Shown: piece after piece, positions 47,276 to 50,170 of the stretch
Position numbering within the stretch: position 1 is the first letter of the stretch
How the letters are laid out: each line of letters begins with the position of its first letter
Assembly: GCA_018402365.1 (NCBI GenBank)
Contig: JAGYJD010000002.1
Span: 2,859-66,858, forward strand
Source of the DNA: Candidatus Nanopelagicales bacterium
GTDB taxonomy: Bacteria > Actinomycetota > Actinomycetes > S36-B12 > UBA5976
Direction: 5' to 3'
DNA length: 64,000 nucleotides
The notes under the pieces: model-generated
Told to the model about the DNA's origin: nothing
Database searches by the model: none
The model's input: only the letters and a program-made list of their open reading frames with translations
Program-made: the position numbers and the translations under genes

Positions 47276-47776
47276 CTAGCCTCGCCGCGAGTGGTCGCCA
47301 CCACGCAACTGGTCAAGCGCATGGGGGAGGATTTCTTCTAAAACGGTCATGGCATCGCGGACCCCTCCAATTGAGCCGGGCACGTTAATGATCAAAGTGT
47401 TGGTGCAAATTCCGGCAATTGCCCGAGAAAGCGCACTGTGAAAAACTCCTTGACTGATTCCATAGGCACGAATGGCTTCGCTGATTCCTGGCGATTCTCT
47501 TTCAATTACCTCTCTAGTCATTTCTGGAGTGACATCAGTTGGTGAGTGACCAGTTCCTCCCGTGGTTATCACTAAGTCAAAATTCTGCTTAACTGCCTTT
47601 AATAAGGATTCCTTTACGCTAACTCCATCTGGTATCACTTCGACTGCTTCGCAAGTTAAACCAAGTGAAGTAAGTTTTTCAAAGATCAGCGCGCCTGAAG
47701 TGTCTTGCCAGATTCCTGCCGCAGCTCTAGTAGAGACAGAAATTACTTTTGCGCGAAATGCACTTAGGTCACTCAT
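47276..47776 (-). CDS. MogA/MoaB family molybdenum cofactor biosynthesis protein
   Basis: [19 protein letters not shown] and INVPGS motifs. The ATG overlaps the upstream stop (ATGAGTGA). Confidence 0.8.
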
Positions 47777-49265
47777 TTTCTAGCAGAATTGAGCGGCGCG
47801 GAGTAGCAAATTTGTCACTTATTTCTTGCAATTCATCAGAGACTATTTTTTTTAATCTCTTGTCACTTGCCAAAATGGCCTTTAACTCAGTAATTATTTG
47901 GTTTAATTCTTTCTGCTCTGTTTCTAGTTCAATTCTTGAAGTTTTGGTAAGTCGTCGTAGTGGCATATCCAAAATGTAATTGGTCTGCACTTCGCTTAGC
48001 TTGAATGTCTTAATTATTTTTTCTCTTGCAACTTGAGCATCTTCACTAGCTCGGATAATTTTGATAACTTTATCGATATCAACTATTGCTAAGAGCAACC
48101 CTTCCACTAAGTGAAGTCGCTCATTGGCCTTTTTAAGCCTAAATTCACTGCGTCGAGTTACCACGGCTAATCGGTGCTTTAAGTAAACCTGTAACAATTC
48201 GGCTAGACCCAATGTGCGAGGTCGACCGTCAACCAAAGCGACAGAATTTATTGAAAAAGATTCTTCCATTGGGGTAAGGCGGTAGAGGTCTGCTAATAAT
48301 TCTTCTGGCTCATGACTAGATTTGACTTCAATTACGAGCCGTAGCCCTTTCTCACCGTCGGTCAAATCGGTAACTCTCGAAATTCCTTTTAGCTTCTTGG
48401 AATCCACCAGCGATTTAATGCGATCAATAATTCTCTCAGTACCAACATTGAAAGGTAATTGGGTAATGACGATTGCTTTTTTGCGGGAGGTGACTGATTC
48501 GATGCTCGCGCTAGCTCGGATTTTGAAAGTTCCGCGCCCAGTTGAATAAGCTTCTTGGATGTTGGCTAAATCCAAAATTTGCCCACCACCTGGTAAGTCC
48601 GGAGCTGGAATGTGTTTCATTAAATCAGCTAAAGAAGCTTTTGGATTTTCAATGTAATAACGCAACGCGCTTATCACTTCACCAAGATTGTGGGGCGGCA
48701 TGTTGGTAGCCATTCCAACAGCGATGCCGCTAGCGCCATTAACTAGCAGGTTTGGAAAAGCTGCCGGCAAGACACTGGGTTCAACTTCTCTACCGTCGTA
48801 ATTTGCTCGAAAATCTACGACATCTTCATCCAGCGAGTCAGTCATGCTTAAGGCGGCGGCAGTCAGGCGGCATTCGGTATAGCGCATTGCAGCCGGTCCA
48901 TCATCTAGTGAACCAAAGTTACCTTGACCGTCTATTAAGGGAAGTCGCAATGAGAACGGTTGCGCCATTCTGACCAAGGCGTCATAAATTGCGCTGTCAC
49001 CGTGTGGGTGCAATTTACCCATTACCTCGCCGATTACACGTGCGCTTTTTACGTGACCGCGCTCAGGGCGCAAGCCCATCTCGCTCATTTGAAAAAGAAT
49101 TCTTCTTTGAACTGGCTTTAACCCATCTCGGGCATCAGGTAAGGCTCTAGCGTAAATAACCGAATAGGCATATTCTAAAAAAGATTCACGCATTTCATCA
49201 GAAACATCAATATCGATTATTCGCTCGGGAGTACTAGCATCCAAGACTGTTTTCTTAGGTGACAA
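47769..49265 (-). CDS. type IIA topoisomerase subunit A (GyrA/ParC-like), breakage-reunion domain only, no C-terminal beta-pinwheel domain
   Basis: [36 protein letters not shown] and the active-site [10 protein letters not shown] are present. The ORF stops at residue 498, right after the PRRSI (RRT.I-like) boundary motif. Confidence 0.8.
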
Positions 49266-49276
49266 TTAAATAAGCC

Positions 49277-50170
49277 TTATTCGTTTGTTTTAGATCCCGA
49301 TCCAAACAAAATCTCGTCCCAACTTGGAACCGAGGCACGCTTAGGTTTGGTAGCGGGTTTTTCTTCTTCGGGTTCTTCTTGAGCGACCGATGATTCATTT
49401 GCATTTTCAACTTTAGGTATTTCTTGAGTTGAAGCAAACATCGAGGTGGTAGCTAAATTAGGAGTCGGAATAGGCATGGTTTGAGCCGCTGGGTCAGTTT
49501 GACCTGCGGGGGTGACCCAATTTGGTAATTCAGAATCTTCTTCAAAGGCAACTTCTTTCGGTACTGCCACTAACCTTGGAGTGGTGATTTCTGCGGCTGA
49601 TTCTTCTTCGGGAACATCAAGCAGCCATCTTGCAACATCATTTAATGGGGCAATGGTTGACACCGAAGAATCAAAAACCCAATGAGCTTCACTTTCTCCT
49701 TTTTTGCCCATAAAAGCTAGCGCCACGTTCCAGCGACCATCATCTCTGCGCCAAGCATCCCAACGCATTGAAGAGGGGTTTCCTCCACCATTAACCACTC
49801 TTGACTCAACAATGTCATTAAAAGCAGCGCTACCGCGAGCTTTTCTAATTTCTGTGGCTTTGGCTTTTTGTGAAATAAAATAACGCTCTTGTAAAACCGG
49901 TTGCTCATATTTTCTTATTCTGCTTAGCTCTATTCCGGTAACTTGGGCTAAATCTTCCGCAGTTATTCCACCACGAATACGAGCTTGAATTTCAGCAACT
50001 GTTAAATCTTGATTTTGATCTTGATCCTGTGGCTTTGGTCGTTCTTTCCACTGTCGAATTGCATCACGAATTTCTTCATTTATTTCAACTTGAAATTCGA
50101 TTCCATCGGAATCGCGCAGCTGCAAAAAAGCGCCATCTTCGCTTAGTTTGGCAAATCTTAACGCGCGCAA
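49277..50170 (-). CDS. sepH: cell-division protein SepH (DUF3071)
   Basis: N-terminal MRALRFAKLSEDGAFLQL, the HTH region LTVAEIQARIRGGITAEDLAQVTG, and the conserved C-terminal SVPSWDEILFG. TTG start after AAGGGA. Confidence 0.72.
   Translation of the reverse strand: MRALRFAKLSEDGAFLQLRDSDGIEFQVEINEEIRDAIRQWKERPKPQDQDQNQDLTVAEIQARIRGGITAEDLAQVTGIELSRIRKYEQPVLQERYFISQKAKATEIRKARGSAAFNDIVESRVVNGGGNPSSMRWDAWRRDDGRWNVALAFMGKKGESEAHWVFDSSVSTIAPLNDVARWLLDVPEEESAAEITTPRLVAVPKEVAFEEDSELPNWVTPAGQTDPAAQTMPIPTPNLATTSMFASTQEIPKVENANESSVAQEEPEEEKPATKPKRASVPSWDEILFGSGSKTNE

Follow-up and report, generated by a model that had tools for sequence, protein, structure and literature searches.

What becomes of a type IIA topoisomerase when the gene for one of its subunits stops at the point where the beta-pinwheel domain of its relatives begins, and can such a gene still encode a working enzyme? 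This question is raised by a gene in a 64,000-nucleotide stretch of DNA (the window) from a Candidatus Nanopelagicales bacterium (assembly GCA_018402365.1, contig JAGYJD010000002.1, referred to here as contig C12). The original prediction, made from the letters of the window, had described its product as a GyrA/ParC-like subunit ending at the boundary between the N-terminal domain (NTD) and the C-terminal domain (CTD). We assign a probability of roughly 0.8 to the reading that this gene, parC, encodes a functional and naturally CTD-less ParC, which would act in a minimal topoisomerase IV (Topo IV) together with ParE.

The open reading frame (ORF) runs from a TTG start to a TGA stop and gives a product of 498 amino acids (aa) that comprises the winged-helix, tower, coiled-coil and C-gate parts and has no beta-pinwheel CTD. 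The expectation of a full breakage-reunion domain with the catalytic tyrosine in its usual context was borne out. PF00521 is complete in the product, with residues 40-480 covering profile positions 1-432 of 432 (E 4.7e-155), and Tyr129 lies within the motif AAMRYTE. Residues R128, Y129, T130 and E131, together with the metal/DNA-gate motifs, are among the more than 150 columns that are invariant in an alignment of 35 sequences. The product ends six residues past PRRS, which is indeed the NTD/CTD boundary. Core constructs that have been crystallised stop at this same point: in the PDB, the 490-residue core chain of S. aureus GyrA matches query residues 14-492/494 with its residues 6-485, and S. 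pneumoniae ParC55 and the M. tuberculosis GyrA NTD likewise align end to end (E down to 5e-155).

The same comparisons settle which subunit this is. The label of a GyrA/ParC-like protein was right for the core domain and too general as a name, because by its sequence relationships the window protein is specifically an orthologue of the actinobacterial topoisomerase IV subunit A, ParC. Among the NCBIfam models it fits NF004044 ("DNA topoisomerase (ATP-hydrolyzing)") best, with 744 bits against a cut-off of 654 from a match that spans only model positions 2-479 of 738. The scores for both GyrA equivalog models remain under their cut-offs (682 against 902 for NF004043 and 666 against 877 for TIGR01063). 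Over residues 1-497 the identity to the ParC of relatives is 64-71%, compared with 47% to the GyrA of the same genome. Given this orthology to canonical ParC, kinship with TopoM, the A-like subunit of M. smegmatis TopoNM, is unlikely. The features of a DNA gyrase subunit A, namely a six-blade CTD with a GyrA-box and a gyrB-gyrA locus, are missing from the window protein and its gene.

A ParC of this kind needs to be considered along with the rest of the source genome (G000; 1.34 Mb in 47 contigs, 88% complete, about 2% contamination, GC about 0.43), in which gyrA, gyrB, parE and a stand-alone pinwheel gene were looked for, as had been proposed. Contig C5 carries gyrA beside gyrB; the GyrA is 818 aa long, with six PF03989 blades and the GyrA-box QKRGGRG at residue 534. 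The remark in the original prediction that no B subunit is nearby holds for contig C12, which has no PF00204 (B-subunit) match, but an intact ParE of 687 aa with HATPase_c, DNA_gyraseB, Toprim and DNA_gyraseB_C domains is encoded on contig C43. The further remark, on the inability of the enzyme to supercoil like gyrase, loses its relevance, as a complete gyrase with a GyrA-box is present in the genome. Of the two attributes of a canonical ParC, a beta-pinwheel CTD and a cognate ParE, the window protein has the second and lacks the first. No stand-alone CTD gene came to light: there are no PF03989 blades in G000 outside gyrA, a tblastn search of G000 with the ParC CTDs of five relatives matched only the gyrA CTD, and a relative's ParC CTD searched against the 18 other genomes of the genus matched only gyrA CTDs. 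A GyrB-like ORF of 799 aa with a long C-terminal extension (L010 406..2805, minus strand) was considered as a long B subunit and set aside, since its 23.8-kb contig, C13, has a GC of 0.68 compared with about 0.43 for the genome and is probably contamination.

Comparison of orthologue lengths sharply separates the genus from its relatives. We call the window's genus g1; its set comprises 18 genomes besides G000, and codes beginning with G, L and P denote genomes, loci and proteins, respectively. In all 15 of the genus genomes that have an assembled parC 3' end, the open frame measures 498-531 aa and stops no more than about 25 codons past PRR; in three further genomes the gene is cut by contig ends. 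By contrast, ParC is 800-920 aa long in six other genera of the family (g2, g3, g5, g6, g7 and g21) and 816-972 aa long in nine other families sampled in the order. The additional stretch of about 310 residues in these relatives is PF03989-positive and has no GyrA-box, which identifies it as a true Topo IV CTD. The short form also recurs in sequencing-run assemblies and protein clusters. Four Logan assemblies of different SRA runs contain a 92%-identical ORF of 498 aa, for which the moaB overlap and the neighbouring genes are as in the window; about 20 further clusters at 90% identity (NCBI, ENA, JGI and Logan) hold proteins of 498-501 aa, and more than 40 independent 90%-identity clusters hold proteins of 498-517 aa.

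Two subclades can be told apart within the genus. In subclade A, to which the window, G004 and G006 belong, ParC has 498-500 aa and the 3' end of the gene is rearranged, with moaB abutting parC; the reductase-parE pair of G000 is on another contig, where it adjoins an unrelated gene cluster. In subclade B, with at least 10 species, ParC has 517 aa and ends in PRRT.LVSESGKIISEA.KK.DELVxx, a tail corresponding in the alignment to the linker and first beta-strand of full-length ParC. The subclade-B locus has MFS-sepH-parC upstream, followed downstream by a Pyr_redox_2 reductase gene and a convergent parE about 1 kb from parC, and this gene structure is seen on a 913-kb contig.

The gene is under strong constraint. 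Nei-Gojobori dN/dS values are 0.021-0.063 for pairs within subclade B (dS 0.2-1.8); in subclade A dS is saturated and dN is just 0.08-0.10. Of the 18 other genus genomes, 16 keep ParE, with 79-91% identity, and the two without a hit are 62-71% complete. The low dN/dS, the invariant columns and the retention of ParE rule out a pseudogene, the lineage-specific pseudogene raised at the outset included. The original prediction had called the arrangement evolutionarily settled rather than a fresh truncation, and a short form that is genus-wide, under purifying selection and absent from sister genera agrees with that. Streamlining alone does not explain the loss, because the CTD is retained in the sister genera g2 and g6, whose genomes are just as small (1.2-1.7 Mb). 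Net charge of the NTD (-3 to +6 in short, -15 to -1 in full-length proteins) was entertained as a compensation for the missing domain and rejected as compositional, the GyrA of the same low-GC genome being shifted alike.

The ParC CTD is regarded as the source of the DNA affinity and processivity of Topo IV and of its preference for positive supercoils and catenanes. Assembly with ParE and enzymatic behaviour are what we infer from the observations above. Two 498-aa ParC and two 687-aa ParE chains would form a minimal (ParC-NTD)2(ParE)2 topoisomerase IV, in which Tyr129 would cleave the bound G-segment and the T-segment would be passed through under ATP control. In the absence of the beta-pinwheel the enzyme would lose the added DNA affinity, the processivity and the discrimination of supercoil handedness; it would probably be a distributive ATP-dependent relaxase and decatenase, and supercoiling would be left to the separate, complete gyrase (GyrA with its GyrA-box, and GyrB). 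Removal of the CTD lowers DNA affinity (PMC8216471) and impairs the discrimination of supercoil geometry and handedness (PMC10342825), and gyrase stripped of its CTDs passes strands in an ATP-dependent manner and so relaxes DNA (PMC8216471). An intact core with its partner and no CTD, read together with this published biochemistry, points to a minimal distributive relaxase/decatenase beside a normal gyrase, and the minimal decatenase/relaxase proposed originally would still be the most reasonable function. As for its origin, the ancestor of the genus would already have lost the CTD coding region by deletion. In subclade B 24 residues of the linker and first strand would survive, while in subclade A a later rearrangement would have brought moaB to the 3' end, leaving a tail of six residues.

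Several points weigh against this assignment. The AlphaFold2 (AF2) model is confident over residues 190-498, with the last helix at 468-486, and poor for residues 1-187, where the alignment is shallow; judged by the sequence identity to solved cores, this weak region is unimportant. E. coli Topo IV is reported to be less active without its CTD, and a CTD-less enzyme may therefore fall short as the principal decatenase. A compensating partner that is invisible to sequence searches could exist. Finally, the source genome is 88% complete, so the lack of a CTD encoded in trans is not absolute for this genome.

The truncation extends beyond the window's genus. The protein search also returned proteins of 496-508 aa with about 70% identity, which fall into two further lineages. 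The second lineage has the C-terminal ends PRRTRIA or PRRTRIGKE, more than 120 clusters at 90% identity and at least 19 species representatives with genomes of 0.9-1.5 Mb. In a class-level sample of 401 genomes this lineage corresponds to family f39 (genera g79 and g198), which lies outside the window's order. Family f39 (for example G783, G758 and G640; loci L162-L164) has at least 23 species representatives, of which all but one are closed, with genomes of 1.3-1.5 Mb; its parC open frames span 505-607 aa and the match ends at query residue 492-494. The 3' neighbour of the short parC in f39 is parE or a phosphodiesterase-family gene. In a third, metagenomic lineage, represented by two clusters and two contigs, ParC has 508 aa and ends in PRRTELTAA, and its gene is followed by that for the reductase. 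No further short ParC was found in the 401-genome class sample. Three candidates were dismissed: G501 (578 aa), in which the gene is cut by a contig end; P0052 (505 aa), which is probably a fragment, being on a 2.6-kb contig and having an 831-aa sister; and P0077 (642 aa, 130-kb contig), which has a frameshift-like tail among relatives of 812 aa. The last protein is normal into the first CTD blades and then continues as a low-complexity Ser/Pro/Arg tail, which looks like a frameshift within the CTD.

How often, then, was the domain lost? We give even odds to the proposal that CTD loss has been recurrent and independently fixed in streamlined freshwater actinobacteria, with convergent changes of G232 and A322 marking a former CTD-docking surface. 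Gly232 is present in 100% of 33 full-length ParC proteins and is also glycine in the S. aureus GyrA core; it is replaced in subclades A and B of g1 and in lineage 3, while lineage 2 varies at this position (A/D/G). Ala322 is conserved in 94% of full-length ParC and is replaced in all four short lineages. The two residues are candidate sites of former contact with the CTD or its linker. The medians of ParC/GyrA divergence, 1.25 and 1.23, indicate no overall rate acceleration, and only comparisons with the nearest species relatives are elevated.

The competing account is a single CTD loss followed by horizontal spread of the short parC, which would have replaced the resident full-length gene in planktonic actinobacteria. 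We consider it less likely but quite possible, and the ParC data speak for it. In the maximum-likelihood (ML) tree of the ParC NTD, g1 stands together with lineages 2 and 3 (ultrafast bootstrap, UFBoot, 77 and 76), the backbone being otherwise unresolved, and ParC divergence relative to GyrA is lowest for pairs of g1 and f39 (ratio 1.03-1.11). In approximately unbiased (AU) tests on the ParC data, run with 5,000 resamplings, a number that IQ-TREE warns is insufficient for a reliable result, forcing both GyrA-like placements together costs 86 log-likelihood units and is marginally rejected (p = 0.035), whereas neither placement is rejected when imposed alone (p = 0.065 and 0.128). The other subunits speak against a common origin. 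The GyrA tree places g1 within a clade of the CTD-bearing genera g2, g4 and g7 (support 99) and the lineage-2 genome G390 elsewhere, with f6 (100). In the ParE tree, of which two mistranslated tips (G033 and G032) are to be disregarded, g1 is beside g2 (97), g4 branches next, and f39 groups with g5 and g6 (87), although parE is beside parC in both. The end points also differ among the short proteins, at +24, +6, +3 to +5 and +6 residues past PRR(T/S), and the ancestral synteny is retained at each locus. The ParE and GyrA trees thus favour independent losses, in which separate deletions would have been followed by convergent change in the core.

A different challenge concerns what the short protein does alone. 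The function of the CTD might be supplied in trans, either by an unrecognised DNA-binding partner or by a GyrA-CTD product that docks on the ParC core. Borrelia makes a free GyrA-CTD protein, which offers a precedent, and the replacements at A322 (all four short lineages) and G232 (three) could mark a remodelled surface. Set against this, G000 and the other genus genomes yielded no extra PF03989 blade, and neither did five closed f39 genomes, which have exactly six blades each, all of them inside gyrA. Nor is there a constant new neighbour: the gene next to the short parC is moaB in subclade A, the reductase in subclade B, and parE or the phosphodiesterase-family gene in f39. We regard supply in trans as improbable and prefer a CTD-less ParC that would act with ParE by itself.

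Still less probable is the idea of a decaying remnant or a repurposed, non-catalytic protein in cells where gyrase alone decatenates, as it does in mycobacteria without Topo IV. Some actinobacteria do manage without Topo IV, and streamlining discards dispensable DNA. A useless gene of 1.5 kb and its partner of 2 kb, however, would not persist in genomes of 1.2-1.4 Mb across 18 or more species and dozens of closed genomes. The dN/dS of 0.02-0.06, the invariance of the catalytic Arg-Tyr, of the metal/DNA-gate motifs and of more than 150 columns, and the co-retention of an intact ParE point the same way. An assembly error or frameshift at the 3' end that hides a CTD, an outcome the original prediction had named as fatal to it and one that the fragmented source assembly with its foreign contig C13 might invite, can for practical purposes be discounted, because the identical structure occurs in the four unrelated SRA assemblies and in two other species of the subclade, short parC genes lie on the 913-kb contig of subclade B and in closed genomes of f39, and the downstream moaB, in frame and with homologues of its own, leaves no space for a CTD.

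Comparison with known systems places the window protein in a category that has been met before. The canonical actinobacterial ParC (NF004044, about 820 aa; Streptomyces, Kribbella and the sister genera) has an orthologous core with identical catalytic motifs, and the family context MFS-sepH-parC ... reductase-parE is common to both. It differs in its beta-pinwheel CTD of about 310 residues, which the window protein lacks, and the Suc_Fer-like gene found at the g6 locus L024 is missing from g1 loci. The engineered cores (GyrA59, ParC55, the S. aureus GyrA core and the M. tuberculosis GyrA NTD) have boundaries nearly identical to those of the natural protein (query 14-494) and form cleavage-competent complexes with B-subunit fragments. 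They are laboratory truncations, however, whereas here whole genera have the short form fixed as their wild type. The expected functional analogues are the type IIA topoisomerases II of phage T4 and eukaryotes, which need no DNA-wrapping beta-pinwheel for relaxation and decatenation but have another subunit organisation and distant sequences. The short Topo IV A subunits of spirochaetes and Bacteroidota (NF007209/PRK09631, about 630 aa) share a reduced C-terminal region in comparison with a ParC of about 750-820 aa but keep a partial CTD and belong to a distant family (243 bits against a cut-off of 644).

The closest parallel is the zero-blade ParC reported in Chlamydia (PMC8216471). Both are natural Topo IV A subunits that consist of the breakage-reunion domain only, but their origins are independent, since the window protein nests among actinobacterial ParCs, and Chlamydia is an obligate intracellular organism whereas the window's host is a free-living planktonic actinobacterium. 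Judged by length, NF007208/PRK09630 (479 positions, "DNA topoisomerase IV subunit A") may be the curated family of the Chlamydia ParC; the window ParC scores 156 bits against its cut-off of 598, matches only positions 3-318 and falls outside it. A CTD-less ParC is thus a kind already known, and what is new is its independent derivation within the actinobacterial ParC family, in free-living plankton. A literature search on Nanopelagicales and topoisomerase IV returned nothing, and we found no paper on a CTD-less ParC in free-living actinobacteria.

The locus would provide a natural minimal bacterial type IIA topoisomerase that can be compared with sister-genus orthologues of about 820 aa at 64-71% identity, and it invites one to ask by what means chromosomes are decatenated in tiny, slow-growing planktonic cells. 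If the loss is indeed recurrent, these abundant bacteria would constitute a natural experiment in which chirality sensing and processivity conferred by the CTD are dispensable, or otherwise replaced, for small chromosomes. For annotation, calls of "DNA gyrase subunit A" of about 500 aa in these lineages represent real ParC genes and not fragments. Quinolones target the core, which is retained intact, so that drug-target inferences are unaffected.

The features of the locus are collected in Table 1. The predicted overlap of parC with the next gene, and the absence of a CTD-encoding ORF behind it, were both confirmed. The DNA downstream of parC is fully taken up by genes for the MoaB-like protein, a DUF4349 protein and an ABC ATPase, and there is no room for a CTD because moaB, with its own homologues, fills that DNA in frame. 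The position of sepH directly upstream, on the same strand, was likewise as described, whereas its adjacency proved not to be particular to the truncated form. In genus g5 (L026) sepH is directly upstream of a full-length parC, with a gap of 40 nucleotides (nt); in lineage 2 (f39) it is near the short parC and not adjacent to it; and at the loci of Streptomyces and of most other actinomycetes no sepH was detected within 4 kb of parC. Because sepH is also found beside full-length parC, its adjacency is not tied to truncation: it is local synteny, with nothing specific to the truncated ParC. Co-transcription of sepH and parC is plausible from the 11-nt gap; a scan for promoters and terminators gave results at chance level.

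Table 1. Positions of parC, its landmarks and its neighbours in the window (residue numbers refer to the 498-aa product).
Feature	Position	Strand	Evidence or remark
moaB/mogA-like gene, 166 aa	47276..47776	-	PF00994 E 9.5e-26; ATG at 47776-47774
parC/moaB overlap, 8 nt, ATGAGTGA	47769..47776	-	moaB start inside last parC codons; also in G004 and four SRA assemblies
parC, NTD-only form	47769..49265	-	ORF list, PF00521, NF004044, PDB core alignments, AF2 model
PRRS (489-492) and six-residue tail ILLENE, NTD/CTD hinge	47772..47801	-	full-length relatives run on from PRR(T/S) into linker and first beta-strand
Codon of residue 322 (Ala in full-length ParC)	~48300-48302	-	
Codon of residue 232 (Gly in full-length ParC)	~48570-48572	-	
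Catalytic Tyr129 codon, within AAMRYTE	48879..48881	-	motif begins at residue 125
sepH-parC spacer, 11 nt, sepH stop to parC TTG	49266..49276	-	sequence
sepH, 297 aa, upstream neighbour	49277..50170	-	NF040712 195 bits, PF11268

Some minor observations concern the neighbouring genes. The moaB-like gene is found 3' of parC only in subclade A of the genus. The best NCBIfam match of its product is the MoaB half of a bifunctional MoaC/MoaB model, and the gene is apart from the other molybdenum cofactor (Moco) genes, moeA, moaC and moaA, which are on contig C1 (57024-58816 and 85158-85535). On the 913-kb contig of subclade B (L159 7594..9673, GCA_964202785.1) parE is called as two pieces of 532 and 169 aa; the parE of L160 is an intact 692 aa, and the split in L159 is either a frameshift or a long-read assembly error. 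At the full-length loci, the genes between parC and the convergent parE are a Suc_Fer-like gene (with a 4-nt overlap of the parC stop), a Pyr_redox_2 reductase gene and a beta-carbonic anhydrase gene in g6 (L024 3247..9971), and a TspO-like gene, a reductase gene and a carbonic-anhydrase-like ORF in g5 (L026 3206..9937); of these, only the reductase is present at g1 loci. In f39, parE and parC are either convergent or form an overlapping co-directional pair, in which the parE stop and the parC start share base 2807, and the ParE lengths at L032 (747..4297) and L031 (6001..9808) are 686 and 739 aa, respectively.

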